Positions 2,371-56,128 of a stretch of DNA of 64,000 bases are shown piece by piece (position 1 is the stretch's first letter; each line of letters starts with the position of its first letter). The stretch comes from Chloroflexota bacterium (GTDB lineage Bacteria > Chloroflexota > UBA11872), in assembly GCA_026707585.1 (NCBI GenBank), contig JAPOWQ010000032.1:7383-71382 (forward strand), read 5' to 3'. Position numbers and translations under genes: made by a program. The notes under the pieces were generated by a model that saw only the letters and a program-made list of their open reading frames with translations, had not been told where the DNA came from and searched no databases.

Positions 2371-4092
2371 TCAAATCGCCCCATTCCCTGAACCGATTCC
2401 CTGCCTCCGCCTCAGCAACGCCAAATTGCTCGAAATCACCTGGTGCTGCTGCGGATTCGTCGACGGCGTATACACCGCCAGCGCCTGCTCGTAGTGATAC
2501 GCCGCTTCGCGCAGCAAATCCGGCTCGTTCTGCTTCGCCATCCCGAACAACATGCTCCCCAGGTTCGCGTGCGCCACCGCCGCCTGCGGCGGAGCGTTCG
2601 GACCCGTCCACACCTGCAACGCCGCTCGGAACGCCGCCACGCTCGCCGCCAGGTCCGTCTCGTTTCGGCCCTGCGCCCGAAACGCCAGCGCCATCCCCAG
2701 GTTGAACTGCGCCACCGCATGCGGCGCCGGGTGCGTCGCCAGCGGACGCGCCTCGCTCGCTGCCTGCAGCCGCTCGATCGCCTTGTCCAGGTGCGACGCG
2801 TCCCCTTCCGTCGAGTGCAGCGTCATGTACACCAGCCCCGCGTTCAGCTGGCTCGCCCCCGCGTCCTCCGGCCGGCCCAGCGACGTCCACAGCTCCGCCG
2901 CCCGGTCCAGCGCCTCCGCCGCCTCCGCCAGCGAGGCCTCCAGCCCCTGGCCGGCCGCCGACATGATCGCCGACCCCAGGTTGTTCGCCAGTTGAGCCGC
3001 CAGCGCCGTCGCCTCGTTGTTGCTGGCTGCCTTCAGACCTTCCCGGAACGCCTCCACCGCGGCGCTCGTGGCCCCCGGAATTCCGCGTTGCGACAGCTCC
3101 GCCTGCGCCAGTCCCCGCTCACTCCACATCGACGCCCGCTCGCTGTGCGGCGAATCGTCGGGGAGCAGTTCCAGCGCCGTCGCCAGCGCGCTGTCCGCCT
3201 GCCGCAGGTTCTGCGCCCGGTCCCCGCCCGGCCGCTGACCCCACGCCGCGCCCAGCGCCCGGTACAGCTGCGCCGCCTCCCCCGCATGCTCCGCGATGCC
3301 CGGCAGGTGAACCGCCTTGTTGTAGCTCGCGATCGCCTCCTGCAGATTCGCGTCCCGATCGCCCGCCTGGCGCAACCCGTAGGCCGCCGCCCGGTTCGCG
3401 TGCACCGCCATCGCCACGCCCACGTCCACGTTCGCGTCGTTCACCGCTTCCGCGGCCTGGTCGAATCGCGACAACGCCTCGTCCGCCGACGCCGGATTGC
3501 TCGCCAGCAATCGGCCCGACCCGTTCAGCAGCGACACCAGCAGCCCCCGCGCATCCGCCTTCCGCGCCGCCGCGATCGCCTCGTCGAACACCCCCACCGC
3601 CTGCCGAACGCTGAACGGATCGTTCGGCTTCGCGTCCTGGCCCGCCGCCCGCGCGTAACCCGCCAGCAACCGCGCCTGCAGACCGTGCTGCCCGACCGCG
3701 CCCAGCGCCCCCGCCGTCTGCGCGTACGTCCGCTGCGCCGCTTCGCGCCGTCCCGCCCGCCACTGCGCCTGGCCCAGCCGCTCGCTCGCCCCCGCAAACA
3801 GGTCCGGAAGCTCCTGCGGCGTAAACACCAGCAACGCCCGCGCCGCCGCCTGCGCCGCCTCGTTCAGGATCGCGTTGGACGCCTCGCCCTCCAGCAGAAC
3901 CCCGGCCAGGTCGTAATTCGCCAGCCCAAACTCCACCGGCTGCGACTCCACGCTCAGCCCCGCCACCGCCGCCCGCAGCTGCCCGGCGGCCGCAACCGGA
4001 TCCTCGTCCCGCAAAGCCGCGGCCCGCCGCCGCTCCTCCAGCGCCCGCTCAACCGCCTCGCCTACCAGCGCCAACCTCCCCAACCGCCCCAA
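2371..4092 (-). CDS. Tetratricopeptide-repeat (TPR) protein, 573 aa
   Basis: Ala/Leu-rich repeated helical hairpin motifs throughout, with no other recognisable domain. Divergent from the PhyH gene. Confidence 0.6.
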   Translation of the reverse strand: MGRLGRLALVGEAVERALEERRRAAALRDEDPVAAAGQLRAAVAGLSVESQPVEFGLANYDLAGVLLEGEASNAILNEAAQAAARALLVFTPQELPDLFAGASERLGQAQWRAGRREAAQRTYAQTAGALGAVGQHGLQARLLAGYARAAGQDAKPNDPFSVRQAVGVFDEAIAAARKADARGLLVSLLNGSGRLLASNPASADEALSRFDQAAEAVNDANVDVGVAMAVHANRAAAYGLRQAGDRDANLQEAIASYNKAVHLPGIAEHAGEAAQLYRALGAAWGQRPGGDRAQNLRQADSALATALELLPDDSPHSERASMWSERGLAQAELSQRGIPGATSAAVEAFREGLKAASNNEATALAAQLANNLGSAIMSAAGQGLEASLAEAAEALDRAAELWTSLGRPEDAGASQLNAGLVYMTLHSTEGDASHLDKAIERLQAASEARPLATHPAPHAVAQFNLGMALAFRAQGRNETDLAASVAAFRAALQVWTGPNAPPQAAVAHANLGSMLFGMAKQNEPDLLREAAYHYEQALAVYTPSTNPQQHQVISSNLALLRRRQGIGSGNGAI

Positions 4093-4380
4093 AACCCGCC
4101 CAGTCTACGAACCACCCCCAACCTCGCCGCTCCACCTCCTGACTCGATGTTTCGCTTGCTTTCATCCTCAAACAGTGTACACTGGAGCCGGTGGCCTCGC
4201 AACCCACCCGCGCCGAAAATCCACCGACCCCAAAACCCGCCAAATCTCGGGACCGCCGGCCGCCGAACCCCCCGGAGGGGTTCGGCCGCCGGCGGTCACC
4301 AGTACCCCAATAGAGGCCCCACCGTGTAGCATCGCCACGTACGGTTTCGGCAGTCCGCTGACGGCGGCAGGAGAACTCAG

Positions 4381-7157: not shown

Positions 7158-8045
7158 CTATCCCTCGCCAGACACGCGCGCGACTGTGATCTCGGCGTCG
7201 CGTGTCCAGACCTCGCTGAAGACCAGCGGCTTCGGTCGGCCGCGCTGGACGCCCGGTGGCTCGACCGCCCCGTCGCGAAGTTCGTTTCTGTCGCGCCCGC
7301 GAACCTCGTGATACCAGGACAGCTCGCTGGTCGCTGGCTCGATTGCGCGCTGCAGGATGAACTCCACGCGATCGAAGCTGCTGAACGCCACACCGGCCAG
7401 GAACACACGATCGAGCCCCTGCCCGTCCCACGTGGCCAGATCCGGAAGAATGACGGGCTCGGTGCAAACCTGGAATTTCTCGTTCCGCTCGTCGAAGTTG
7501 ATGAGTTCGACCGGGAACTCGATGGTCACCGTCAGTTGACGAGCTTGATCGCGATACGAGCAGACCGCATTCAACAGCGCACTGTCCCGCGTGGCCCGGA
7601 TGACTGCGGGAACTGAATCCAGCGGTTCCGCGCGGGCAAATCGCCGAATGTCGACGTCAAACTTTGCGTAGTGCTCGGCCAACGAGTGCCGTCCGGCAGA
7701 CTCGGTGTCCGTTGATGGACGCCTACCAATAGGGATTCCCAGCGTCTCGGAAAAGACTGCCCGGTATTCGCCGCTCGGAATCTGGAACAGATTCTCTTCG
7801 ACGATGGTGTACTCGGCCCGGCAGGGGGCAATGACGTAACAAGTAAACGACTCCCCGGCATCAGGGCTGATCGTCAGTCGCGCATCCGCCTTGAGTCGCA
7901 CGCAGATCACGTCGCCCGGATCGGCCAGCAGCCCGCCCGTGTACTTGTAGACCGGATCGGGTTCGTGCGGATGGTGGGTCCAGGTCAGGAACGACCGCGA
8001 GAAGTCAATCATGTCGATCTCCAGCGTCAGCATCGAGGTGAGCAT
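7158..8045 (-). CDS. Hypothetical protein (295 aa) between the dehydrogenase and the dehydratase; possibly a cupin-like fold
   Basis: ATG at 8045. The remaining upstream part of ORF 7158..9323 is antisense to the enolase-superfamily gene and is rejected. No motif recognised. Confidence 0.45.
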   Translation of the reverse strand: MLTSMLTLEIDMIDFSRSFLTWTHHPHEPDPVYKYTGGLLADPGDVICVRLKADARLTISPDAGESFTCYVIAPCRAEYTIVEENLFQIPSGEYRAVFSETLGIPIGRRPSTDTESAGRHSLAEHYAKFDVDIRRFARAEPLDSVPAVIRATRDSALLNAVCSYRDQARQLTVTIEFPVELINFDERNEKFQVCTEPVILPDLATWDGQGLDRVFLAGVAFSSFDRVEFILQRAIEPATSELSWYHEVRGRDRNELRDGAVEPPGVQRGRPKPLVFSEVWTRDAEITVARVSGEG

Positions 8046-8132
8046 AGCCGCGTTTACGTGGCCTAGCTGGCGAGCAGGGCTAATCGATGCGTGTCGTTCC
8101 GATGGGTGGGATTCTCCTGCGCGCGTTAGAGT

Positions 8133-9305
8133 TTGGAGCAGCCTGGCTGGGGGATCGGAACGTTGAATATCACAGGGCTGGCCTGCGACTTCATCAACGA
8201 TGGGTCGCGGAACTGGCCGATCGTGAGGGTCATGACCGATGCCGGTATCACGGGTATCGGCGAGGCCTATCCGGTCGGTCCTGACAAGGCGGTCGCCGAG
8301 ACCGTTCGATATTTCGAGGACTGGGTGCTCGGCTTCGACCCGCTGGACGGCGAACGCATCTGGCACGAGTTGTATGCCGGCAGCCGGTTTCCCACCGGCT
8401 CGGTGATCACGGCCGCGATCAGCGGCATCGACCAGGCGCTCTGGGACATCAAGGGCAAGGCCCTTGGAACCCCGGTGTATCAGCTGCTGGGCGGCAAGGT
8501 GCGCGACCGGGTACGCGTGTACCAATCGGCGCACGGCGCTACGCCCGAGGCCATGGGCGAGCACGCCAAGCGGCTGATCGAGACGAATGGCTACACGGCG
8601 CTGAAGATCGGTCCCTCCGCGCCAGACGACGATGCAGATCCCTGGGCCGTTCAGCTCGACACCGCCGAGCGGCGCATGGCGGCGGTGCGCGAAGCCGCCG
8701 GTGATGCCATTGACATCGGCGTCGACCCACACGCCAAGATCCTCGAACCGGCTCGGGCCCTGGAAATGGCCGAACGAATTCGCCCGTACCGTCCCTTTTT
8801 CTTCGAGGAGCCGGTCCGGCCGGAGCAGTTCGAACCGCTGGCCAAGCTGGCACGCAAGTGCCCAATCCCGATCGCCACCGGGGAGTGCCTCTACACGAAG
8901 TACGAGTTCCAGCGACTGCTGGCTACCGGCGCGGCGGACATCATCCAGCCCGACGTCTGCGTGACAGGCGGCCTGACCGAGATGAAGAAGATCGCGGCCA
9001 TGGCCGAGGCGCATTATGTGAGCGTTGCACCGCACAACCCACTGGGGCCGCTTGCCACGGCCGTGAACGTCCACTTTGCGGCAACGGCGCCCAACTTCCT
9101 GATCCTCGAATACCACGCCGACGACGCGGGAGTTCGGGCTGAGGTGCTGGTTGAGCCGATTCAGCTGGACGATGGCTACGTGGCCATTCCCGAAGGGCCA
9201 GGCCTGGGCGTGGAACTGAGCGATGGGATCTTGGAGAAGTATCCCTACCGGCCGTGGCGCCGAGGTCGTCCCACGAAAGCGGACGGCATGCTCGCGTACA
9301 TCTAG
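8133..9305 (+). CDS. Enolase-superfamily enzyme (mandelate racemase/muconate lactonizing enzyme family; probable sugar-acid dehydratase)
   Basis: MR/MLE N-terminal and TIM-barrel motifs (ITGIGEAYP, ALWDIKGKALGTPVYQLLGG, metal-binding D/E/D region). Confidence 0.85.
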   Translation: MEQPGWGIGTLNITGLACDFINDGSRNWPIVRVMTDAGITGIGEAYPVGPDKAVAETVRYFEDWVLGFDPLDGERIWHELYAGSRFPTGSVITAAISGIDQALWDIKGKALGTPVYQLLGGKVRDRVRVYQSAHGATPEAMGEHAKRLIETNGYTALKIGPSAPDDDADPWAVQLDTAERRMAAVREAAGDAIDIGVDPHAKILEPARALEMAERIRPYRPFFFEEPVRPEQFEPLAKLARKCPIPIATGECLYTKYEFQRLLATGAADIIQPDVCVTGGLTEMKKIAAMAEAHYVSVAPHNPLGPLATAVNVHFAATAPNFLILEYHADDAGVRAEVLVEPIQLDDGYVAIPEGPGLGVELSDGILEKYPYRPWRRGRPTKADGMLAYI

Positions 9306-9307
9306 CG

Positions 9308-10060
9308 ATGACCCCACACGCACGGCGGTGGCGATGCTTCGGATTGTGGACCTGGCTCCTGGGATCGACCCTCGCTGTCGCGCTGCTGGCCGCCTGCGGT
9401 GAAACCCAGCCAGCGCCTGAGGGCTCCGCCGAGTTCGACCGCTCCGCGTACGAAGACGCGATCGCCGGCGGTGAACTTTCCGTATCGGCTCGCCTTGAAT
9501 CGCCGACGAATGATGGCGACGGTGACGTACGGGTCGAAGTGGATCGGCGTCCGTCCGACCTCACAACTCGCCTGGCCGTGTCGATTGCTCGCGAGTCAGG
9601 GCAGGTCGCTTTCGAAGTTATAGAAGTCGGCGACAGGACCTACTTCCGACAGGGACCAGCCGACGCCGATGGCGAGTGGATTGCCACTGATCGCAGCGCG
9701 CCTGGCGCCGACACTCCGCGTGTCGAGGCACTGGCGAGAGCCTTTCCGGTGGTCGGAGACATTGCCGGCTCGGTCCGTGCCGACGGGTGGACCGAGCGCG
9801 GGGCCGAGCCGTGCCCTTCCACCGGAAGCTGCTTTGTGCTCACCAACCCGGCCTTCGAATTCGCCAGCCTGTACGTCGACGCCGATAGCTACCGCCCTGT
9901 GCATATCCGGCTGGCGCGGCCCGGCATGCGGGCGGCGGGCGAGATCGAAATCGACTGGATGGCGACCGATTCCGTTGAGCCGCCAGCAAATGCCCGGGCT
10001 GTAGACGCAGGGGAATTCGCGGCGACTCTCGGGCCGGTCATGCAGGCTATCGGCCTTTAG
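9308..10060 (+). CDS. Putative lipoprotein (signal peptide plus lipobox LLAACG)
   Basis: N-terminal basic region, hydrophobic core and Cys. ATG at 9308 lies 3 nt after the stop of the upstream gene. Confidence 0.5.
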   Translation: MTPHARRWRCFGLWTWLLGSTLAVALLAACGETQPAPEGSAEFDRSAYEDAIAGGELSVSARLESPTNDGDGDVRVEVDRRPSDLTTRLAVSIARESGQVAFEVIEVGDRTYFRQGPADADGEWIATDRSAPGADTPRVEALARAFPVVGDIAGSVRADGWTERGAEPCPSTGSCFVLTNPAFEFASLYVDADSYRPVHIRLARPGMRAAGEIEIDWMATDSVEPPANARAVDAGEFAATLGPVMQAIGL

Positions 10061-20329: not shown

Positions 20330-22774
20330 GTGACCGTCCGGCTGGTGGCGCGAGTTTTGGTCACGGTCCGCAAGTGCCGGGTTGCCGCTGCGAGCTTCGT
20401 GGTAGCCGCGCTCGTCACTCTCTCAGCGACAGGTGCTGCGGCGGGGCCCGCCGATTTCCCGCTCCATCAAGGTTTCTTCTACATGCAGACCGGCGGCGAA
20501 GGTCTGGGCTATGCGGTTCGGGACGAGCCGGGAGCCGCCATCTGGACCGCTTATCAAGACCTTGGCGGTTACGAAGTTCTGGGCTATCCCGTGTCGCAGT
20601 CCTGGCGCGATGGGCCCTTCACGTTCCAGGCGTTTCAGCGAGCGTTGCTGCAGGCTGCTCCCGACGGCAACGTCCGACCCGCCAACATCTACGACGTGCT
20701 TTCCGCGGCCGGGCACGACCCCTGGCTGCAGACGGTAAAAGGTGTGCCGGCGGCCGCCCTTCTGCCACCCGAATCCGGTCCGCTGGCTCGCTTGGACGCT
20801 CTAATGGTCGCGCCGGAAATCGAGGATTTCTGGCGCCAGGCCCCGGATGCCTTGGATCGCTTTGGATTGCCGCTGGGTTACGCATCCGCTGCGGACGGCG
20901 GCGTGCTCCGGGCTCAGCGCGCCGTCCTGCGCCTTAGCGGCGGCAAAGTTCGCCTGGCCCCGGCCGGCGATCACTTCAAGCAGGCCGGGATGATCCCGGC
21001 TCCAAATATGCTGCCAATGGCCCCGCCGCGCATTCCGCGAGCGCTCGTGGAAGCCCACAGTCCCTTAGTAACCAGCGTGGCCTTCGAGCCATCGGGTGGC
21101 GCGTTCGCCACCGGCGGCTATGACCGCCGCGTTGTCATCTGGGACCGGGCGACCTTGACGCCCATCCATGAACTTGAGGGTCACTTCGACGGCATCTACG
21201 AAGTCGCCTATTCCCCTGACGGCTCCCTACTTGCCAGCGCCTCCGAGGATGACACCGTGCGGCTCTGGGATACGCGCTCGGGCGAGCAGATCCATGTGCT
21301 TCAGGCTGACGAGCGTTGGTTTACAAGCGTGGCCTTTAGTCCAGACGGAACGATGGTGGCTGCGACTACCTACGCCGCGGCCCACGTGTGGGATGTGGTG
21401 ACGGGTGAGCATCTCGCCAAGTTCGACGACATCGACGCGTGGTCAAACGGTATCGCCTTTTCGCCCGACGGCAGCCGCCTGGTCACGAGCGGCTGGGCCG
21501 GAGCGGACATCTGGGACATGGCCACGGGCGAGCGCCAACTCTCGTTGACCGAATATCATTCGCGCGCCGTGCTGTCCCTCGCCATCAGTCCCGACGGCAC
21601 GCGCATCGCGACCGGTGCCGATGACAACCTGGCCGTGTTGTGGGACGCCAACAATGGGTCGGCGCTCGCCACCCTCGCAGGCCACAGTGATTCGGTCTGG
21701 CAGGTGGCCTTCAGCCCCGACGGACGCCGGTTGGCCACGGCGTCCAGCGACGCTACGGTGGCTGTCTGGGATGTCGCCACCGCCACCCGCCTCTACAGCC
21801 TGACGGGCCACACCTCGGATGTTCAAGGCCTCAGCTTTAGCCCGGATGGCGAACTCCTGCTATCCGGGAGCTGGGACGGAGACGTTGGCGTGTGGCAAAC
21901 GGCCCTGTCGGAGTTGGCGGCCCAGGCCACTATGCCGGCGCCGGTCAATGCGGTGGATTTCAGTCCCCTCGGAACGTCCGTGGCGACGGCCTTGAATGAC
22001 GGCTCGCTCGTGATCGCTGGAACCGACGGCGCAATCCACGCATCCATCGCCGCCCACGACCGGCCGGCTCGCGCGGTGGCCTACTCGCCGGATGGAGAAG
22101 TCGTGGCCACCGGCGGCGACGACGGCGGGGTGCGGCTGTGGGACGCCGCGCATGGAACGCAGTTGGCCGAAGCGCCGACCGTTCCGGATAGCGTCACCGC
22201 CCTGACGTTCGCGGCGGACGGTCACCTCCTGGCAGGTGACGCCCGCGGCGTCGTCCGACGACTGGACCCGAGCAACGGCGCCCAAGGCTGGACTGTCACG
22301 GTATCCGGCCCCGTCGTGTCGCTGGCAACCGACGGAATCGGCCTTGCGGCCGTAGGCACGTATCGCGAGATCCTGCTTTTCGATGCGGCGACGGGTGTTG
22401 AGCGGTTGCGACTCACAGGGTTCGATGACTGGATTCGCGCTATCCGATTCAACCGACATGTCGCAGAGATGGCGCTGGCGGACGGTGAGACGATCAAGAT
22501 CCTGGCAAGTGGCTCAAACAGCTTGCTGCGGGAGATTGAGCCGGAGGCGGGGCTTATCACGTCGCTGGCCTACCGGCCACACGGCAACGAACTGGCCATC
22601 GGCGCCTATCAACGAACGCTCCTGCGCGATCCCACCGGCGGCCTGAAGCTCGGACGCGCCATCGATGCCCACATCGACTGGATCCGAGCGCTCGCCTACA
22701 GCCCCGACGGCGCGCTGCTGGCCACGGTCGGGGACGACCGCGCCTTGCGCTTCTGGATCACCCGCGCGGACTGA
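20330..22774 (+). CDS. Secreted WD40-repeat beta-propeller protein with an N-terminal LGFP-like repeat module
   Basis: Signal-peptide-like N-terminus and at least 10 WD40 units (GH.D.V..VAFSPDG.LLAS.S.D.TVRLWD). The N-terminal 150 aa are homologous to the N-terminus of the 51943-53520 protein. Confidence 0.8.
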   Translation: MTVRLVARVLVTVRKCRVAAASFVVAALVTLSATGAAAGPADFPLHQGFFYMQTGGEGLGYAVRDEPGAAIWTAYQDLGGYEVLGYPVSQSWRDGPFTFQAFQRALLQAAPDGNVRPANIYDVLSAAGHDPWLQTVKGVPAAALLPPESGPLARLDALMVAPEIEDFWRQAPDALDRFGLPLGYASAADGGVLRAQRAVLRLSGGKVRLAPAGDHFKQAGMIPAPNMLPMAPPRIPRALVEAHSPLVTSVAFEPSGGAFATGGYDRRVVIWDRATLTPIHELEGHFDGIYEVAYSPDGSLLASASEDDTVRLWDTRSGEQIHVLQADERWFTSVAFSPDGTMVAATTYAAAHVWDVVTGEHLAKFDDIDAWSNGIAFSPDGSRLVTSGWAGADIWDMATGERQLSLTEYHSRAVLSLAISPDGTRIATGADDNLAVLWDANNGSALATLAGHSDSVWQVAFSPDGRRLATASSDATVAVWDVATATRLYSLTGHTSDVQGLSFSPDGELLLSGSWDGDVGVWQTALSELAAQATMPAPVNAVDFSPLGTSVATALNDGSLVIAGTDGAIHASIAAHDRPARAVAYSPDGEVVATGGDDGGVRLWDAAHGTQLAEAPTVPDSVTALTFAADGHLLAGDARGVVRRLDPSNGAQGWTVTVSGPVVSLATDGIGLAAVGTYREILLFDAATGVERLRLTGFDDWIRAIRFNRHVAEMALADGETIKILASGSNSLLREIEPEAGLITSLAYRPHGNELAIGAYQRTLLRDPTGGLKLGRAIDAHIDWIRALAYSPDGALLATVGDDRALRFWITRAD

Positions 22775-30983: not shown

Positions 30984-33401
30984 ATGACCGCAGCCGTGGC
31001 CAGCCGTCCGCGTCCGCTGGCGCGCGCCCTGCAACTGCCGCGCACCGCCTGGTTGCCTCTGACCCTGATCGCCACCACCACGCTGGCGCCACTGCTCAGC
31101 GTTCACACGGTTGGTTGGGCGCCCGGCACGGAGGTGCTGCTGTCGGTCGCCTTGGTGGCCATCCTCTTTGGGTTCGCGCTGTCGCGCACCCGGCTGTCGT
31201 CGATCTGGATCGTGGCCATCGGCATGGTCAGCGACCTTGTCGTCGCCTACATCGTGGCTTCGGAAGCGTTTCCGGGTCCGCTGGACGCGATCCGGAACTT
31301 CGTGCTGCTCTTTGGCGACACGGTGGAGTGGGTCCAGCTGCGGCAAGCTGGAAACCTGGTGCGTGAACAGCCCCTGGCAGCGGCGGTTGGCGAGAGCACC
31401 GGACTGTTGCAGGACCTGTTCTTCCGCCTGGAGTCGTGGTTCCAGGCCGCGTTTGCTTTCCAGGTCAGCCGCGACAACATTGTGTTTCTCTTCTGGATGA
31501 CCATGGCCGCGTGGGGCATGGGGTTCACCGCGGCCTGGGCGGCGTTTCGTCTTCGCAACGCCTACCTGGCCATCGCCCCCGGCACGCTGGCGATCGCCGT
31601 CAACATCACCTACGTGGGTCCGGACTGGCCACCGTTCGCGGTGTTTCTGATTGCGGCGCTGGCGCTTACGGTGCATACGCGGCTGGCCTGGCTGGAGGCT
31701 CGGTGGGACGACACGCGGACGGACTATTCCGAGGAGCTTGGGCCCACCGTCCTGATCGTGAGCGCCCTGCTGATCACCGCCGTCGTATTCCTGGCGCTGA
31801 TCTTGCCGCGGGCGGCCGGGAACCCCCTGGCCGAGGCCTTCTGGACCTATATGGGGGACGGCTGGGGCAACGTGGAAGCCGGCATCCAGCGCGTGTTCGG
31901 GGGCGTATCGAATCCCTCAGGTTCCACGCTGGCCGGTCGGGAGACGCTAGCGCTAACGGGACCCGAACCGTTTGCGCGCAAGGAGACGCTGATTATCGAA
32001 AGCACGGTGCCCTCGTACTGGCGGGGTCAGACTTTCGACACCTATACCGGCCAGGGATGGCGCAGCACGATGCGGCTGCTGGAAGGACGCCGAGCCAACC
32101 AGCCGATAACCGAGACCCTGAACCTGAAGTCGCGCCTGGCGTCGCGCTCCAACATCGAAATCCTGGATTCGAACTCGGCCATTCTCTTCGCGCCGGGCGA
32201 CGCCCTGCGTCTCAACCGCCCGTACCAGGTACAAGTGGAGGAGCGTGAGGTCGCCATTGAGGACTACGCCTCGATTCGCGCCACGCGCCGGGTGGGTCAG
32301 CGGCTCGTGTATTCCGTGGACTCGACCCTGGCGGCGGCGACGACGCAACAGCTGCGGACGGCGCCCACCGTTTACCCGGCATGGGCGGAGCGTTACATCG
32401 CGCTTCCCGAACTGCCCCCACGGGTTCTTGAATTTGCCGCCCGCCTGGCGGAAACCGGCGAAACAGCGGTGGACCGGGCGCGTGCCGCCGAGTTCTTCAT
32501 GCGGCGTTTTCCCTATGCCCAGGACACGGAGCCCCTGCCGCCTGATCGCGACGCCACCGACTACTTTCTCTTCGACCTTCGCCGAGGACACGCCACGCAG
32601 ATCGCCTCGACCATGGCCGTGCTGGTTCGGGCCATGGGCATCCCGGCTCGGGTGGCCGCCGGCTACGCGCAGGGTGTCTTCGATCCGGTGACCCAGCGCT
32701 TCATCGTGAATCCCGCCGACGCGCACACCTGGGTGGAGGTCTTCTTCCCGACCTACGGATGGGTGCTCTTTGAACCCTCCGGCTTTCGAGCTCCCGAGGT
32801 GCGCGGCGGGGCTACCGAGGGCTTCGAAGGCGAGGGGCTGAATCCGGACGCCGCGGACTTGTCGATGGTCGATGACTTCCTGGACGAACTCGAGGACATG
32901 GACGTGGGCAACTTCCAACCGCTGGATCCATCCCAAGGCACGAACCAGGTTCAAGAGTTCCTGGCCAACCTCGGCGGGGCGGTTCTGGCGCTGATCATGA
33001 TTGGCGTCGCGCTCGCCGGGTTGGGGGCGCTCTATCTGCTGGGGACCCTGGTCCGCGACCTGATCCAGAGTCCGCAGGCCGCGGTGGGGCGCCGTTACGA
33101 GCGAATGGTCCGCTGGGCGGGACGCGCTGGGTACAATACGCGCCGCGGGTTCACGCCGGTCGAACTTGGCCGCCAGCTCGCCGCCGAGCTTTTTCCGGCG
33201 CCCGCCACTGAAGCGCCCACCAATCCTTCCGCCCCGCCCGAAGTAGTTGCGGAAACCTATGTTCGCGCCACCTATGGCCGGCGGCAGATCACACGCTCGG
33301 AGCGACGCATGGTTGACAAGGCTTGGCGGCGGGTGCGCCTGCGGCTGGCCGTACGGATCATCGGGCGGCCCTTGCGTCGCCTCACGCCGTCTCGAGCCTG
33401 A
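30984..33401 (+). CDS. Polytopic membrane transglutaminase-like (TgpA-like) protein; predicted catalytic Cys to Ala and Asp to Glu
   Basis: Six or more N-terminal TM helices. Transglutaminase-core region FLFDLRRGHATQIAS...GIPARVAAGY...DAHTWVEVFFPTYGWVLFEPS, compared with the canonical RRG.C..[FY]AS...H.W.EV...W...DPT. C-terminal TM and charged tail. Confidence 0.8.
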   Translation: MTAAVASRPRPLARALQLPRTAWLPLTLIATTTLAPLLSVHTVGWAPGTEVLLSVALVAILFGFALSRTRLSSIWIVAIGMVSDLVVAYIVASEAFPGPLDAIRNFVLLFGDTVEWVQLRQAGNLVREQPLAAAVGESTGLLQDLFFRLESWFQAAFAFQVSRDNIVFLFWMTMAAWGMGFTAAWAAFRLRNAYLAIAPGTLAIAVNITYVGPDWPPFAVFLIAALALTVHTRLAWLEARWDDTRTDYSEELGPTVLIVSALLITAVVFLALILPRAAGNPLAEAFWTYMGDGWGNVEAGIQRVFGGVSNPSGSTLAGRETLALTGPEPFARKETLIIESTVPSYWRGQTFDTYTGQGWRSTMRLLEGRRANQPITETLNLKSRLASRSNIEILDSNSAILFAPGDALRLNRPYQVQVEEREVAIEDYASIRATRRVGQRLVYSVDSTLAAATTQQLRTAPTVYPAWAERYIALPELPPRVLEFAARLAETGETAVDRARAAEFFMRRFPYAQDTEPLPPDRDATDYFLFDLRRGHATQIASTMAVLVRAMGIPARVAAGYAQGVFDPVTQRFIVNPADAHTWVEVFFPTYGWVLFEPSGFRAPEVRGGATEGFEGEGLNPDAADLSMVDDFLDELEDMDVGNFQPLDPSQGTNQVQEFLANLGGAVLALIMIGVALAGLGALYLLGTLVRDLIQSPQAAVGRRYERMVRWAGRAGYNTRRGFTPVELGRQLAAELFPAPATEAPTNPSAPPEVVAETYVRATYGRRQITRSERRMVDKAWRRVRLRLAVRIIGRPLRRLTPSRA

Positions 33402-49841: not shown

Positions 49842-51032
49842 ATGATCCTGGCGGCCAGCATGTGGTTCTACGCCGCCGGTGGCGCCGCCATCAGCGTGTT
49901 TGGGCCGTCGGTCGAGGCGATAGTCGAAGACTTCGGCCTTACCTACAGCCAGATCAGCCTGATCATCACCATTATTTCCTTCGGGTTCATCGCCGGATCG
50001 CTGGGCGGCGGCGCGGCGAGCGACCGGTGGGGACGTCGCGCGGTGCTGGTCCCGTCGGCGGGCGGGGCCTCGCTGTCCATGTTCTGGTTCGCCGCCAGCC
50101 CCACCTTCGGCTCGCTGCTGGCGGCCGGCTTTCTCATCGGGGCTACTTTCGGACCCGGCCTGGCGGCGGCCACGGCGCTGATCGCAGACCTGGCGCGGGA
50201 ACGCAGCACCCGCGCCCTCAACCTCTTCAACACCGCGTTCGCGCTCGGCGCTATCGTGGCCCCCGCGCTCGTGGCTGTCTGCCTGGCTGCATTCACGAAC
50301 TGGCGCGTCGCCTATTTGGTTGTGGCCGCCTGGTTCGCGTCCAGTGCCCTTTTCTTTATTCGCTTGCCCTACCCGCCCCGCGGCAACGCGGTCCCACCCT
50401 TTCGCAGCATGGTCCGCGGGCTTACCTCGCCGCTGTCCGTCCTTCTTGGACTGGTGCTGCTGCTGTACGTGGGTGTCGAAATCGCGTTCGGGGACTTTGG
50501 CGCGGCCTACATGGAACGCACCCAAGGACTGCCGCGAGTGGCCGCGGCGGCATCGGTCACCGCCTTCTGGATCGGCGTCCTGCTCGGGCGCCTCGTCGTC
50601 TACCGCCTGGCGGGCACCTGGCGTGCCTCCAGCATCGTTCGCTGGTCGCTCGTGCTCGCCCTGGTTATGTCGACGCTGGCGGCGCTGGCGGTCTCGCCGG
50701 CCCTGGCCATCCTCGGCTTCGTCCTGACGGGAGCCACAATTGGCGGGGTCTTCCCTACGGCCCTGGGAATCGGCCTGCGCCTACGGCCTGAAATGGCCGG
50801 CGCCCTTGCCGGGGGCCTTGCGGCCATGGCCAGCGTTGGCGGCGCGCTGCTCGCACCCATGATTGGCGCCGCGTCGGACGCCGCCGGCCCGCGAGGTGGC
50901 ATGCTGCTGGCGCCGGCCTTCATCCTCATGGCCATGGTGCTGTTCGAACTCGTCCAGGCGCTGCAGCGTCGAAGGGCAGGCGATCCAGCCGGACGCGCGG
51001 CGCCGCCGGTCAAGGGATCCATTGATGCCTGA
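49842..51032 (+). CDS. MFS transporter (tandem paralog)
   Basis: 12 TM segments; GAASDRWGRR motif. Confidence 0.75.
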   Translation: MILAASMWFYAAGGAAISVFGPSVEAIVEDFGLTYSQISLIITIISFGFIAGSLGGGAASDRWGRRAVLVPSAGGASLSMFWFAASPTFGSLLAAGFLIGATFGPGLAAATALIADLARERSTRALNLFNTAFALGAIVAPALVAVCLAAFTNWRVAYLVVAAWFASSALFFIRLPYPPRGNAVPPFRSMVRGLTSPLSVLLGLVLLLYVGVEIAFGDFGAAYMERTQGLPRVAAAASVTAFWIGVLLGRLVVYRLAGTWRASSIVRWSLVLALVMSTLAALAVSPALAILGFVLTGATIGGVFPTALGIGLRLRPEMAGALAGGLAAMASVGGALLAPMIGAASDAAGPRGGMLLAPAFILMAMVLFELVQALQRRRAGDPAGRAAPPVKGSIDA

Positions 51033-51993
51033 CCCGTCCAGGCCGGTCGGCGCAATCGACCTTGGCGGGACCAGCGTGCGCGCGGCCGTCGTTGACGTGA
51101 ACGGCGGCATTGCGGGCTTCGTGGCCGGCGCCACGGAAGCGTCGCAGGGGCCGGACGCGGTGATCGATCGCATTGTTGCCCTGCTGCATGAATCGCTGGC
51201 CCGCGCGTCGGTCAGAACCTCGGACCTCGCAGCTGTCGGGATTGGCGCGCCCGGGCCGCTCGACTGGGCCACCGGCGTCATTCACGAGGCGCCCAATCTG
51301 CCGGGTTGGAAGGAAGTCGCGCTGGCGGCGCGAATCGGCGATGCCGTTGGCCTTCCGGCGTTCCTCGAGAACGACGCCAACGCCGCGGCGCTGGCCGAAT
51401 GGCAGTACGGAGTCGGACGCGGCGCCATGAACGTGCTCTACATCACGGTCAGCACGGGGGTGGGCGGCGGCCTGATCCTGGACGGGGAGCTCTGGCACGG
51501 GGCGTACGGCAGCGCCGGCGAGTTCGGCCACATGACCGTCGACTTCGACGGCCCGCCGTGCGACTGCGGCAACCGCGGCTGCATCGAGGCCATCGCCGCC
51601 GGTCCCGACATCGCGGCCTGGGTCGTGGACCAGATCGCCGCGGGCCGCTCCAGCAGTCTCGGCGGCCAGACCGACCCTTCCGGCCGCGACGTGGTGGAAG
51701 CCGCGCAGCAAGGCGACGCGCTCGCCGTGAGCGCCCTGGAACGGGCGGGACGCGCCGTCGGCTTTGGCGTCATCAACGTCGCCCACCTCGTCAACCTGGA
51801 CACGGTGGTCATCGGCGGCGGCATTGCCAACGCGGGCGACCTCCTGTTCGATCCGCTGCGGGCGACCGTGCGCGAGCATCTCCTGGAGAGCACCGCACCG
51901 AGCCTGCGGCTCGAGCCCTGGTCGCTCGGCGAAGACGTGGGTCTACTTGGGGCGGCTGCCGCTGCCCGCTCGCGTCTCGTCGGTGGCTCGTAG
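51025..51993 (+). CDS. ROK-family sugar kinase (glucokinase/N-acetylhexosamine kinase-like)
   Basis: IDLGGTSVRAAVVD and a zinc motif CDCGNRGC. 8-nt overlap with the MFS gene. Confidence 0.8.
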   Translation: MPDPSRPVGAIDLGGTSVRAAVVDVNGGIAGFVAGATEASQGPDAVIDRIVALLHESLARASVRTSDLAAVGIGAPGPLDWATGVIHEAPNLPGWKEVALAARIGDAVGLPAFLENDANAAALAEWQYGVGRGAMNVLYITVSTGVGGGLILDGELWHGAYGSAGEFGHMTVDFDGPPCDCGNRGCIEAIAAGPDIAAWVVDQIAAGRSSSLGGQTDPSGRDVVEAAQQGDALAVSALERAGRAVGFGVINVAHLVNLDTVVIGGGIANAGDLLFDPLRATVREHLLESTAPSLRLEPWSLGEDVGLLGAAAAARSRLVGGS

Positions 51994-53520
51994 GGGGCTG
52001 CCCCAGGCCGGCAGATAGTCCGACGCCGGGTTGTCCGTGATGCGCTGCAAGTCCGTCCCGTCCACGCGGACGGTGTAGATCTCCCAGTTGGCGTCGCGGT
52101 AGCTGGCAAAGGCGATCTTTGCGCCGTCGGGCGAGAACACGGGATTCCAGTCCGGCGCCGGATGCGTGGTGAGCCGCACCTCGTTCGATCCGTCCGCGTC
52201 CGCCACGAACACGTCAAACGCGTCGCCAATCCATCTCGCGAACGTGATGAGCGTGCCATCCGGCGAAAACGAAGGATCGCGCCCGCTGCTGATCACCGTG
52301 CGAGACCCGACAGGATCGTCAAGGTCCAGCGTCACGATGTCCGACCCGCTGGTGAAGATGAGCTGCGAGCCGTCGGGTGACCACGCGGGATAGCAAAGGA
52401 ATCCGGCCTGATCGCCGATCCTTCGCTGTTCGGAGCCATCGGCCAGCATGGTGTAAATCTCGCTTTCGCCGGTACGCGTACTCGCGAACGCCAGCCGCTC
52501 GCCGTCGGGCGACCACCAGGCCTCCCAGTCCGTGCTCGCGGTGTTCGTGAGCTGTTGCGGATTGCCCCCGTCGCTGTCGGCCACGAAGACCTGGTAGCTG
52601 CCGCCGGCGAACGCGGAGAACGCAATCCGCTGCCCGCCCGGCGACCAGTTCGGGCGGCTGGTGAGACCGCCCGTCTGCGTGAGCTGCGTCAGATCGCTCC
52701 CGGTTGGCGTCATGGTCCAGAGATTCCACGCCCCGCTGCGGTTGCTCAGGAACGCCAGCAGTCCGGTCGTCCCGGCCAGGTTCGGATCGGGAATGGCAGC
52801 GGTCGCCTCGACCGGAATCATGCCGCCGTCCCGGTAGTCCAAGCCGCTGTGGGAGATGACGACGTTGGGCGCGCTCACCGCCGGTTCGGAGTCAGGGCGC
52901 CACAGCCAGAACACCGCGCGCTGCGCCCGCAGCACCGCAACGTCATCGCGATCTTCGACGACCACCGGTAGGCCGTAGGCATCCAGCCAGCGGTCGTTAC
53001 CGAACCAGCGGCGCTCAATGTCAGGAAAACGCTTCAGAATCTCCAGCCGCTCCGCCAAGACTTCTTCAAACGAACGCGCATCCGCCTCCTCTGGGTTCGG
53101 AGGAAGTGGAACGCCGCGCGCAGTCTGAAGCCAGGGGTCGCGCCCGGCCTGGCTGAGCGCGTCGTAGACGTTCAGGAACGTCACGCCATCGGCCACCGTC
53201 CATTGCAGAACCGCCTTCTGAAATGCCTGAAGGGTCAAGGGACCAGCCGACCAGCGGTTGGAAATCGGGTATCCCAGCCGTGCCACGCCGCCAGCGGACT
53301 GGAAAAACGTCCAGAATGGGATGTCCTCCGCATCGGTCACTTCGAAACCGAGACCGTCGCCCGGTCCGGCCTGCGAATAGAACCACCCGTGGGCGGTAGC
53401 CCAATCCGGCGGCGATTCCGCCTGCGCGAAGCGGGCCGGCGCAAGAAACATCCCGCCCAGGAGGGCCAGCGCCAGCACCGTGCCGCGCACGATGCGCTGG
53501 CGACGGGCGCTAGAGGGCAT
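51943..53520 (-). CDS. Secreted PD40/TolB-like beta-propeller protein with an N-terminal LGFP-like repeat module
   Basis: Signal peptide (RRQRIVRGTVLALALLGGMFLAPARFAQA). The N-terminal ~170 aa are homologous to the N-terminus of the WD40 protein. C-terminal PD40 repeats (SPDG.R.AF.S.R.G..EIY). Confidence 0.75.
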   Translation of the reverse strand: MPSSARRQRIVRGTVLALALLGGMFLAPARFAQAESPPDWATAHGWFYSQAGPGDGLGFEVTDAEDIPFWTFFQSAGGVARLGYPISNRWSAGPLTLQAFQKAVLQWTVADGVTFLNVYDALSQAGRDPWLQTARGVPLPPNPEEADARSFEEVLAERLEILKRFPDIERRWFGNDRWLDAYGLPVVVEDRDDVAVLRAQRAVFWLWRPDSEPAVSAPNVVISHSGLDYRDGGMIPVEATAAIPDPNLAGTTGLLAFLSNRSGAWNLWTMTPTGSDLTQLTQTGGLTSRPNWSPGGQRIAFSAFAGGSYQVFVADSDGGNPQQLTNTASTDWEAWWSPDGERLAFASTRTGESEIYTMLADGSEQRRIGDQAGFLCYPAWSPDGSQLIFTSGSDIVTLDLDDPVGSRTVISSGRDPSFSPDGTLITFARWIGDAFDVFVADADGSNEVRLTTHPAPDWNPVFSPDGAKIAFASYRDANWEIYTVRVDGTDLQRITDNPASDYLPAWGSPLRATDETRAGSGSRPK

Positions 53521-53659
53521 GGGGCGACATAGACCGTGAAGCTGGCGGCGGGCACTGTAGCCCACCCCTGCGGTTTCGAATGTAGTGAACCTTGTTTTCA
53601 TGCAAGAATTGGCCCGGCGCCCACGCGGGCGAATCATCATTCGCAGGTAGGACGATTCA

Positions 53660-54502
53660 ATGGCCGAATACGTGAAATCTGATGTGCTGGTCGACACTGA
53701 CTGGGTTGCAACCTATGGCGGCGACGACGGTGTGCGGCTGGTCGAAGTGGACGTCGACACGTCCTCCTACGACTCGGGTCATATCCCCGGCGCCGTGGGT
53801 TGGAACTGGGAAACCCAGCTTTCGGACGGCATCCGGCGCGACATCGCCTCGCCGGAACAGTGGAAGGATCTGCTCGAAAGCTCCGGCATCGCCGCCGACA
53901 CGCACGTCATCCTCTACGGCGACAACAACAACTGGTTCGCCGCTTTTGCGTACTGGCAGTTCAAGATGGGCGGCCACGAGCGGGTGAGTCTCATGAACGG
54001 CGGACGGCTCAAGTGGGAGCAGGAAGGCCGCGAGTTGACCACCGACGAGACCGTCGTCGAGTCCGCCACCTACGAAGCCGGTGAGGCCGATCCGTCTTTG
54101 CGTGTCCTGCAGCCTGACGTCCGCGCTGCGCTTGGCGACGGCTCCACCGTGCTGGTGGACGTGCGTTCGCCCGCCGAGTTCACCGGCGAGATCCTGGCTC
54201 CGCCGGGCCTTCAGGAATTGTCACAGCGCGGCGGCCACATACCCGGCGCTGACAACGTGCCCTGGCTGACCGCCGTCAACGAAGCCGACGGCACCTTCAA
54301 GTCGGCCGACGAACTGCTGGAAATCTACGGTCCCCTCGGCGCGACCGGCGACGCACCCGTCATCACCTACTGCCGAATTGGGGAGCGCTCGGCCCACACC
54401 TGGTTCGCGCTGCACGAACTGCTCGGCGTTGGGGACGTCCGCAACTACGACGGCTCCTGGACCGAATGGGGCTCGATGATCGGACAGCCAATCGAGCGCT
54501 GA
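53660..54502 (+). CDS. sseA: Thiosulfate/3-mercaptopyruvate sulfurtransferase (tandem rhodanese domains)
   Basis: Two rhodanese domains; active-site CRIGERS. Confidence 0.85.
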   Translation: MAEYVKSDVLVDTDWVATYGGDDGVRLVEVDVDTSSYDSGHIPGAVGWNWETQLSDGIRRDIASPEQWKDLLESSGIAADTHVILYGDNNNWFAAFAYWQFKMGGHERVSLMNGGRLKWEQEGRELTTDETVVESATYEAGEADPSLRVLQPDVRAALGDGSTVLVDVRSPAEFTGEILAPPGLQELSQRGGHIPGADNVPWLTAVNEADGTFKSADELLEIYGPLGATGDAPVITYCRIGERSAHTWFALHELLGVGDVRNYDGSWTEWGSMIGQPIER

Positions 54503-54526: not shown

Positions 54527-56128
54527 CTAGCCGCCCAGTTCGACTCTCGCCAGGTCAATCGCGCCGCTTACCGGTTCGATTCCGAAGCCGGTCACGTCAG
54601 GCTTGAGCAGAAAGGCCGAGGCGTGGCGGCCAATCGCGATAGCCGGTGTCTCGGCTTCGAGGACGGCGTCGGCGGACAGGTAGGCCGCCCGCTGGGCTTC
54701 CTGGTCCGTTGTCGCCGCCGCCGTGGTCAGGTGTTGGTCAAACGCGGTGTTGCCCCAGCCCGTGCGGAAAAAGTCCACGTCCGAACGCCATAGCTCGTCG
54801 AGCCAGTTTGACGGATGGCGGAATTCGGAGGTCCAACCGGCTCGGTAGGCATCGAAATCGCCGGGCGCGTTCGAGAAGTCCAGGAAGTCGCGCCACTCGC
54901 GCACGTCCGGCTGGACCACCACGCCAAGGGTGTCGTCCCATACCCTGGCCAGTTCGGCGGCCAACCGATCCCACTGGTCGGTGCGGTGGTACGTGAAGCG
55001 CAGGGGTGGGAGTCCCGCACCGTTGCGGAACCCCGCGCTCGCCAGCAGGGCCCGCGCCTCGTCGACGTTTGGCGCGCCGCCGGGCTCGGCGGCCAGGACG
55101 CTTTCGGGCGTCAGCCGCTGCGCCGGCAGTGTGGGCCGGTCGAACACCGCCGCGGTCAACGCCTCGCGGTCGAGCGCCAGCGACAACGCCCGCCGAACGG
55201 CCACCATGTCCCACGGCGCCTTGCGCGTGTTGAACACGATGAACCAGGTGCCCGCACGCTCGAAGAGCCGCACCTGCGGTCGCAGGTCTGGATTGCCCAG
55301 CGCAGACCTGTAGTCTGCCCCGCTCACGCTGGCGGCGTGCGCCGGACTGGCATGAAAGTCCTGGAGCCGCGAGTCGGCGGATCGCGGGAATCGAATGACC
55401 ACGTCGCTAAAGACCGGCGGCGTGGGACCGCCGTAGTGCGGGTTGCGATGCAGCGTCATGCCCAGGCCGCGATCCCACTGCGCCAGCTTGTACGGCCCAT
55501 TGCTGCGAATACGGATCGGGTCGGTCCACGATGCCCCGGTTCCTTCAATCTCCGCCCGAGGCAGCGGTACGAACGTCGTCGTCCCCACCCGCGCCAGGAG
55601 TCCAGGCGTAGGACGCTCAAGATGCACCCGCAAGGTCGACGTGTCCGGCGCGCGAATCTCCGGCTCGTTACGATTGCGGCCGCCGCCGGCATAGCTCTCC
55701 GCTCCCCTGATGGGGAACAGGAGATAGTTGAACGTAGCGCCCAGTTCCGGCGCCAGGTTGCGCCGCCACGACCAGACAAAGTCGTCGGAAGAGACGGCCT
55801 CGCCCGAAGTCCATCGACCGCTGGCCGAGAGCTTGAACTGGTAGGCGTGCCCGGCGTCCGTGATCTGCCACGACTCGGCGGCGGCCGGGTGCGACACGCC
55901 GCCTTCGCCGACGCGTACGAGCGGCTCGAACAGAGCCTCCGCGACGGTTGCTTCGTGCGGCTGCGCGACCAGCGCCGGATCGATGGTGGCCGGCTCGTCC
56001 AATAGCAACTCAAGCCGCCGGCCGGTGGCGGCGCTTTCTGGCGCCAGCGGTCCCTCGCATGCCGCCAGGGCCGCGAGAGCAGCGCCGCCACCGGCTAGTT
56101 CCACGAACCGTCGACGGTTCAGCGGCAT
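54527..56128 (-). CDS. ABC transporter substrate-binding protein, family 5 (peptide/nickel/oligosaccharide type)
   Basis: Tat-like/lipoprotein signal (RRRFVELAGGGAALAALAAC) and SBP_bac_5 fold motifs. Confidence 0.75.
   Translation of the reverse strand: MPLNRRRFVELAGGGAALAALAACEGPLAPESAATGRRLELLLDEPATIDPALVAQPHEATVAEALFEPLVRVGEGGVSHPAAAESWQITDAGHAYQFKLSASGRWTSGEAVSSDDFVWSWRRNLAPELGATFNYLLFPIRGAESYAGGGRNRNEPEIRAPDTSTLRVHLERPTPGLLARVGTTTFVPLPRAEIEGTGASWTDPIRIRSNGPYKLAQWDRGLGMTLHRNPHYGGPTPPVFSDVVIRFPRSADSRLQDFHASPAHAASVSGADYRSALGNPDLRPQVRLFERAGTWFIVFNTRKAPWDMVAVRRALSLALDREALTAAVFDRPTLPAQRLTPESVLAAEPGGAPNVDEARALLASAGFRNGAGLPPLRFTYHRTDQWDRLAAELARVWDDTLGVVVQPDVREWRDFLDFSNAPGDFDAYRAGWTSEFRHPSNWLDELWRSDVDFFRTGWGNTAFDQHLTTAAATTDQEAQRAAYLSADAVLEAETPAIAIGRHASAFLLKPDVTGFGIEPVSGAIDLARVELGG

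Follow-up and report, generated by a model that had tools for sequence, protein, structure and literature searches.

The window analysed here, a 64,000-nucleotide stretch of DNA from a Chloroflexota bacterium (contig JAPOWQ010000032.1, positions 7,383 to 71,382), encodes two beta-propeller proteins, one built from WD40 repeats and the other from PD40 (TolB-like) repeats, that share one ~200-residue module immediately behind a predicted signal peptide, followed in both by a Pro-rich linker and then the propeller. The module defines a large family that has no name in current domain libraries, and it is a general, mobile building block, not a propeller-specific tether, with the WD40 and PD40 proteins as ordinary members. 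Two of its parts are diverged LGFP repeats, and we lean towards the view that it is a cell-envelope-binding anchor of LGFP-like units, which would retain whatever domain is attached to it at the surface. Chloroflexota are abundant in soils, sediments, oceans and sponges, and very little is known about the organisation of their cell surface; a module that is missed by both Pfam and NCBIfam would offer a useful annotation handle for their surface-exposed proteins and a candidate wall-binding tag.

The module shared by the WD40 and PD40 proteins

The N-terminal regions of the two proteins align with 78 identities over 177 positions (44%; BLASTP with compositional adjustment, E 3e-40), confirming the shared module that a first-pass annotation had recognised at positions 20462-20980 of the WD40 gene. 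This interval lies inside the domain as delimited by a profile hidden Markov model (HMM; envelope 20438-21028), and all of the motifs named in the annotation are present: the two copies pair HQGFFYMQTG with HGWFYSQAG, LGYPVSQSW with LGYPISNRW and QAFQRALLQ with QAFQKAVLQ, and both contain DPWLQT and VLRAQRAV. When either module was searched by tblastn against the six frames of the whole window, the sole match was the other copy (all remaining matches had E > 0.3), which, together with the E value of 3e-40, indicates that the similarity is due neither to low complexity nor to chance. With a G+C content of 66.8% and frequent Ala, Gly and Pro, the window might be thought to produce such a resemblance by composition instead of homology, but the E value was obtained with compositional adjustment, 32 columns are invariant across seven module sequences, 650 clusters of related sequences are found at E ≤ 1e-30 (see below), and the structure models of the two copies are confident and concordant, so that we regard the chance of a compositional artefact as negligible.

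The propeller assignments made in the first-pass annotation are likewise correct. The WD40 protein passes the cut-off of Pfam WD40 (PF00400) with 275.9 bits (E 9.7e-85) in nine stretches over residues ~243-814, a region that several other beta-propeller models in Pfam also match and that, judged by its length, would accommodate two seven-bladed propellers. The PD40 protein passes that of Pfam PD40 (PF07676) with 120.9 bits (E 1.4e-35) in five stretches. The features of the two genes (ORF, open reading frame; aa, amino acids) are as follows.

20330-22774 (+): gene of the WD40 protein, an ORF of 814 aa with a signal-peptide-like N-terminus
20330-20443 (+): signal-peptide-like N-terminus of the WD40 protein, MTVRLVARVLVTVRKCRVAAASFVVAALVTLSATGAAA, then GP, read from the sequence
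20438-21028 (+): module copy A, residues 37-233, from the profile HMM envelope
20579-20749 (+): LGFP-like unit 1 of copy A, LGYPVSQSWRDGPFTFQAFQRALLQ...NIYDVLSAAGHDPWLQTVKGVP, from hhalign and from Pfam LGFP hits on the same stretch in the family members P0004 and P0005
20750-20860 (+): helical insert between the units of copy A, ~37 residues in three helices, from the AlphaFold models
20861-20998 (+): LGFP-like unit 2 of copy A, FGLPLGYASAADGGVLRAQRAVLRL...GDHFKQAGMIP, from hhalign against unit 1 and from the models
21056-22771 (+): WD40 repeat region, ~570 residues, Pfam WD40 in nine stretches
51943-53520 (-): gene of the PD40 (TolB-like repeat) protein, an ORF of 525 aa with a signal-peptide-like N-terminus
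53419-53520 (-): signal-peptide-like N-terminus of the PD40 protein, MPSSARRQRIVRGTVLALALLGGMFLAPARFAQA, with a cleavage-type motif AQA|ES, from the sequence and its conservation in orthologues
52786-53418 (-): module copy B, residues 35-245, from the profile HMM envelope
51946-52785 (-): PD40 beta-propeller region, ~280 residues, Pfam PD40 in five stretches, with DPPIV_N also matching

Structure prediction with AlphaFold gave confident models of both modules (copy A, from a 7-sequence alignment: predicted local distance difference test score, pLDDT, 88.8 and predicted template modelling score, pTM, 0.83; copy B, from a 40-sequence alignment: pLDDT 93.9 and pTM 0.89) in which the secondary-structure elements follow each other in the same order. 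A three-stranded sheet and two short helices come first, succeeded by a four-stranded sheet that starts with LGYP (unit 1) and two helices; after a helical insert of ~40 residues there is a second four-stranded sheet, which starts with GLP (unit 2), and again two helices. The module is thus composed of three beta-sheet-plus-helix units, two of which, with an LG(Y/L)P motif ahead of a Q-x-F/Q-x-x-V/L hairpin, represent LGFP repeats in diverged form. These two units arose by internal duplication: aligned as family profiles, unit 1 and unit 2 match with an hhalign probability of 89% (E 2.2e-6), and they have the same layout of helix and four strands in the models, while the N-terminal sheet (unit 0) gave no hhalign signal against either. 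Invariant or nearly invariant across the family are G-Y-P-x-S-x-R, Q..Q (as in QAFQ), N..D.L..G.D, G-L-P, R.QR and two Trp residues, which are mirrored between the two units and look like repeat or ligand-contact positions, not like a catalytic set.

Both N-termini read as Sec-type signal peptides. That of the WD40 protein, conserved in seven orthologues, runs from a basic n-region through a hydrophobic core to a c-region of small residues; the 814-aa product exactly matches MCY3958083.1, which NCBI names 'WD40 repeat domain-containing protein [Chloroflexota bacterium]'. The PD40 frame is open over 51943-53697 (-), and we place its start at the ATG at 53520, giving the product of 525 aa, because the N-terminal sequence from there, MP(S/T)SARRQRI...AQA|ESPPD, is conserved in 16 orthologues (L010-L025). 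No entry in the protein collection is identical to this product, and it is probable that the deposited gene was called from another start. The n-region of the PD40 protein includes a twin-arginine-like ARRQRIV (residues 5-11; 53488-53508, -). A twin-arginine translocation signal (SARRQRI) was considered and rejected as unlikely: the motif is non-canonical, the residues after it depart from the consensus, and a minority of the orthologues lack the Arg pair.

Relation to LGFP repeats

The first-pass annotation had also seen in the module two LG(Y/F)P-type repeats like the LGFP cell-wall-anchoring repeats of actinobacteria. What stands of this is that there are two LG(Y/L)P-type units and that they are distantly related to LGFP repeats; what does not stand is recognition by the Pfam LGFP model (PF08310), which failed to match the window proteins or their isolated modules at E ≤ 1. 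The relation is carried by several independent comparisons. Gp39 of Mycobacterium phage Barnyard has three Pfam-verified LGFP repeats (110 bits), one of which, LGYPIAPHAVIPDGGDVQAFQNGVLY, visibly resembles the LGYPVSQ...QAFQRAVLQ of the module, and the profile of unit 1 aligns with the gp39 repeats in register over 36 columns (hhalign probability 93%, E 3.4e-7); the same register was chosen when the profile of the whole module was aligned with the single gp39 sequence. Two stand-alone members of the module family pass the Pfam LGFP gathering cut-off of 22 bits on the stretch LGYPVSQR...YQAFQRAVL (P0004 with 24.2 bits and P0005 with 29.6 bits), and a third, P0006, falls just under it (19.7 bits). 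Among 32 module-only sequences, LGFP was the only recurring Pfam family (six of the 32, all below threshold, best E 0.0084), every other family matching once.

Structure comparison points the same way. For both models, the only high-probability match in the PDB was the LGFP domain of mycoloyltransferase A (MytA; 6swz/6sx4; E 8.2e-4 for copy A and 1.4e-3 for copy B, probability 1.0), the next matches having E values of ~0.2. Among predicted viral structures, the best matches of the copy B model were the LysA amidases of Rhodococcus phage Trina and of Gordonia phages Gsput1 and Matteo (E 1.3e-3 to 3.7e-3), and the LysA proteins of ~350 aa in other Gordonia phages combine an amidase with a C-terminal, LGFP-like region that is putatively wall-binding (PMC9671378; PMC3314691). 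As PMC11299179 summarises, the LGFP domains of MytA are reported to interact with peptidoglycan-arabinogalactan wall material, and in the actinophage endolysins LGFP is regarded as the part that binds the wall (PMC9671378; PMC3314691).

However, a number of results count against treating the module as made of LGFP units. In the window proteins it stays below every Pfam and NCBIfam threshold (the NCBIfam scan returned one weak match to copy B, YbgE with E 0.032, far below its cut-off). Unit 2 gave no hhalign signal against genuine LGFP repeats, and would be tied to them only by its homology to unit 1; the N-terminal sheet has no direct sequence link to LGFP, and nothing in the LGFP repeats aligned with the helical insert. 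The models superimpose poorly on 6swz (template modelling score ~0.3, root-mean-square deviation 8-12 Å), which means that it is the repeat units that correspond and not their packing. A search of PDB sequences with the family profile did not match MytA, the best matches of this search and of phmmer being spurious (ATP synthase subunit d and SRC1, E > 0.2), and tblastn of copy B against 50,697 phage records yielded a chance match only (E 7). The evidence nevertheless supports the module as a distant LGFP relative, whose copies in the window proteins fall outside PF08310 by that family's own cut-off.

The likeness to known LGFP systems is accordingly partial. The module shares with MytA/PS1 of Corynebacterium glutamicum (6SWZ/6SX4) the LG(F/Y/W)P motif and the ensuing G...Q-x-F-x-x-G/A-x-(I/L/V) hairpin, a unit of one helix and a three- to four-stranded sheet, and a place in envelope proteins that are, or in our case appear to be, exported. 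MytA, however, has three to five contiguous repeats of 54 residues at its C-terminus and belongs to the Actinomycetota, whereas the module has a fixed length of ~200 residues, with two units split by the insert of ~40 residues and a degenerate N-terminal sheet, is mostly N-terminal and occurs in Chloroflexota; the PF08310 HMM passes in some family members but finds no match in the window proteins and in most others. The contiguous C-terminal tandem array typical of LGFP in actinobacterial envelope proteins and phage lytic enzymes is absent from the module. With the actinophage endolysins (Barnyard gp39, and the 'CW1' of Gordonia and Rhodococcus LysA) it has the modular logic in common: they join a binding module to a peptidoglycan amidase, and the module family likewise has fusions to Amidase_3, M23 and RlpA. 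The endolysin domains are C-terminal and encoded by phages, whereas the module is encoded on the chromosome, lies mostly at the N-terminus and has far more varied partners; tblastn detects no sequence similarity between them.

Family size, partners and a proposed role in envelope anchoring

A profile made from seven module sequences and searched against 1.84 billion cluster representatives (50% identity clusters) retrieved at least 2,483 clusters at E ≤ 1e-3, including the 650 at E ≤ 1e-30. Within the best 150 of the 2,483, the module is N-terminal in 101 proteins, C-terminal in 33, essentially alone in 15 and internal in one, and it is present twice in three; the stand-alone members have only a signal or a membrane anchor ahead of the module. 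When 99 of these best 150 proteins were scanned with Pfam, 116 different partner families were found, and none that covers the module itself. The most frequent partners were trypsin-like proteases (nine; PDZ occurs in five proteins) and GH5 cellulases (six), followed by the propeller families PD40, WD40 and Sortilin/BNR (three each) and NHL (two), by Amidase_3, LTD, Peptidase_M1, fn3 and PsbP (two each), and by Peptidase_S11. Further scans added Peptidase_M23, a GmrSD_C nuclease, NAGPA, CarboxypepD_reg, cupredoxin and an RlpA-type DPBB domain (in a Chloroflexota protein named septal ring lytic transglycosylase RlpA family protein by NCBI), and Glyco_hydro_42, Glyco_hydro_cc and leucine-rich repeats (LRR) also occur. 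Four kinds of partner are thus peptidoglycan-remodelling: Amidase_3, Peptidase_S11, Peptidase_M23 and RlpA/DPBB. Two of the proteins with duplicated modules look like large adhesin-like surface proteins: P0007 (778 aa), in which two copies alternate with SdrD B-like domains, and P0050 (1611 aa), in which two copies precede ~14 fn3-like repeats of ~80 residues.

This census largely refutes the narrower view of the first-pass annotation, which had taken the WD40 and PD40 proteins for a modular family of envelope-tethered propeller proteins. A dedicated propeller tether, with the two loci linked by a recent domain exchange, would account for the finding that both window proteins are propellers and for the recurrence of PD40, WD40, BNR/Sortilin and NHL among the partners, yet propellers make up a small minority of the 99 sampled representatives, a few percent of the partners in a family of at least 2,483 clusters. 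Copies A and B are 41% identical on match columns, whereas either copy shares 45-49% identity with modules on M23, LTD, NAGPA, BNR and other PD40 proteins, non-propeller proteins among them; with nearer relatives of both copies elsewhere, the two loci have no particular connection. Moreover, the WD40 and PD40 proteins each have their own series of orthologues in the same genomes, so that their split is old, and the two genes lie in unrelated housekeeping neighbourhoods. We therefore consider a propeller-specific tether very improbable; the range of partners and the distance between copies A and B identify the module as a general building block.

As for its function, we propose that each protein would be exported through its N-terminal signal peptide, that the module would bind, non-covalently, a polymer of the cell's own envelope, most likely peptidoglycan or a wall-linked glycan, and that it would thereby keep the propeller, C-terminal to it, at the cell surface. 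The LGFP relation, the position after the signal peptide, the promiscuous fusion to other domains, the duplicated and stand-alone forms and the peptidoglycan enzymes among the partners make an envelope polymer the most likely ligand. The wall anchors of monoderm bacteria (LysM, SH3b, SLH, PG_binding_1 and SPOR) are used in the same way, as small non-catalytic domains after a signal peptide that are likewise fused to proteases, glycosidases, peptidoglycan hydrolases and adhesin-like repeats, and sometimes occur duplicated or alone; they have no relation to the module in sequence or fold, and none of them matches it in the Pfam scans. If anchoring were confirmed, LGFP-type wall binding would extend beyond the Actinomycetota and their phages, and to a different ligand.

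To the negative results on the LGFP relation must be added other points that tell against such an anchor. To our knowledge, the arabinogalactan with which LGFP domains come into contact in Corynebacteriales is missing from Chloroflexota, so that the ligand must differ from the complex bound there, and the GH5 and GH42 partners fit substrate targeting equally well. A scan of one genome per species located 25 loci, all in Chloroflexota metagenome-assembled genomes (MAGs), and the named NCBI hits are also from Chloroflexota; because the scan used one narrow peptide pattern and the named proteins are few, this restriction to a single phylum is provisional. A GT87-family glycosyltransferase gene is present in the window itself (41763-43586, -; PF09594, E 7.8e-36). 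GT87 enzymes are best known from the synthesis of envelope mannan and arabinomannan in actinobacteria, and the gene hints at wall-associated glycans that may be relevant to the ligand of the module.

The main competitor of the envelope anchor is a carbohydrate-binding module directed at external polysaccharides, such as host or environmental glycans, instead of the cell's own wall. The GH5 cellulases (six of 99), Glyco_hydro_42, Glyco_hydro_cc and NAGPA among the partners would suit such a module, as would an LGFP fold, itself a sugar- or wall-binding repeat, and the closest relatives come from MAGs whose names suggest sponges, in which matrix glycans are abundant. Many partners, however, have no polysaccharide substrate (trypsin/PDZ, WD40, LRR, LTD, cupredoxin and the nuclease), and Amidase_3, S11, M23 and RlpA work on peptidoglycan of the cell itself; in 15 of the top 150 proteins nothing accompanies the module except a signal or a membrane anchor, and the characterised LGFP examples bind the wall of the producer or of the phage host. 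We think external targeting unlikely. Less probable by far is a module without any envelope binding that serves as an N-terminal pro-domain, as an intramolecular chaperone or in oligomerisation, and that is either removed or acts upon the domain attached to it: the module does follow the signal peptide directly in two thirds of the proteins, with a Pro-rich linker to the next domain, but it is C-terminal in 33 and stands alone in 15 of the top 150, it is duplicated in some, its structurally unrelated partners argue against a role in folding, and its units resemble a known wall-binding repeat.

Orthologues, probable sponge association and genomic context

Orthologues of the WD40 protein were found at seven loci (72-81% identical in the module and 78-89% in the propeller) and those of the PD40 protein at 16 (62-86% and 85-95%). 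The module has diverged further than the propeller in both series, as would suit a module that follows a lineage-variable ligand, and several genomes hold both genes, which marks the two as old paralogous architectures. One locus, L026 (5980-7269 of MAG CAXXFA010000002.1), encodes a more distant PD40 paralogue whose open frame starts at about module residue 55; as the module's first quarter is either absent or in another frame, it may be a pseudogene or carry a frameshift. Two proteins from ENA assemblies, P0001 (314 aa) and P0003 (172 aa), are truncated WD40 orthologues from different contigs that both depart from the WD40 frame at one point (VVIWDR...) and end in one and the same unusual Arg-rich tail (DLDARLR.GRPLRR.LRSRLLARRF.ACQCFRG). 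A frameshift common to both, a pseudogene or an assembly error that recurs might each explain this.

Many of the MAGs with orthologues have names that suggest sponge metagenomes (RHO1/2/3, SB0662, CO36386, Langseth), and to judge by these names alone the bacterium is probably sponge-associated. In one Chloroflexota MAG (OZ244806.1; L009, 5899-8280, +; protein family of P0002), a signal peptide and a module 49% identical to copy B are followed by an LRR N-cap-like segment, NPGLVEDCAALL...NWSW, and then by ~20 plant-type leucine-rich repeats of 24 residues (LSGSIPPELGNL...; LRR_1, E 3.6e-58). This protein and the WD40 protein of the window have repeats of the same kind as the eukaryote-like repeat (ELR) proteins (WD40, LRR, ankyrin, TPR), but ELR proteins are defined by their repeats alone, whereas these two add the LGFP-like module; we know of no description of ELR proteins with such a module at the N-terminus. 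A speculative extension, which we put forward as a long shot, is that the module is the main wall-anchoring domain of the phylum and that sponge-associated Chloroflexota use it to display eukaryote-like repeats (WD40, or the LRRs of L009) on the symbiont surface, in contact with host cells or matrix. ELR proteins are common in sponge symbionts, few of whose lineages have secretion systems to deliver them, and their route to the host is unclear; WD40 repeats were not enriched in the sponge MAGs of that data set (PMC8163846). If the proposal were true, a signal peptide and a wall anchor would suffice for surface display without dedicated secretion systems and would explain that route, and confirmation of anchoring would provide a testable way in which the WD40 and LRR proteins of sponge symbionts are presented to the host.

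Both window genes seem to be isolated, with unrelated neighbours. On one side of the WD40 gene lies an epimerase/DUF1731 gene, on the other a GT2 gene, followed by dnaX, ybaB and recR. The PD40 gene adjoins a divergent rhodanese-like ORF and a convergent ROK-type kinase ORF (50863-51993, +; assigned by eye), the 3' end of which overlaps its own by 51 bases (51943-51993). Operon links were considered at both loci and rejected, the neighbours being unrelated housekeeping genes. Also rejected was the identification of the PD40 protein as TolB: it scores 179.9 bits against TIGR02800, which has an equivalog cut-off of 343, and matches profile positions 205-384 only, so that the likeness lies in the PD40 repeats and this partial match, whereas the N-terminal domain of TolB is replaced by the LGFP-like module and there are no tol-pal neighbours.

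Elsewhere in the window, three long ORFs of 628-721 aa (2443-4329, +; 7158-9323, -; 43990-46002, +) had no Pfam match at 1e-5, and as each overlaps a long ORF on the opposite strand they may not be real genes. Two tandem paralogous genes encode family-5 extracellular solute-binding proteins (54527-56128, -, and 56133-57746, -; SBP_bac_5 with E 1.6e-58 and 5.4e-62), and a further envelope-associated product is a TgpA-like membrane transglutaminase (30984-33401, +; TgpA_N and Transglut_core).

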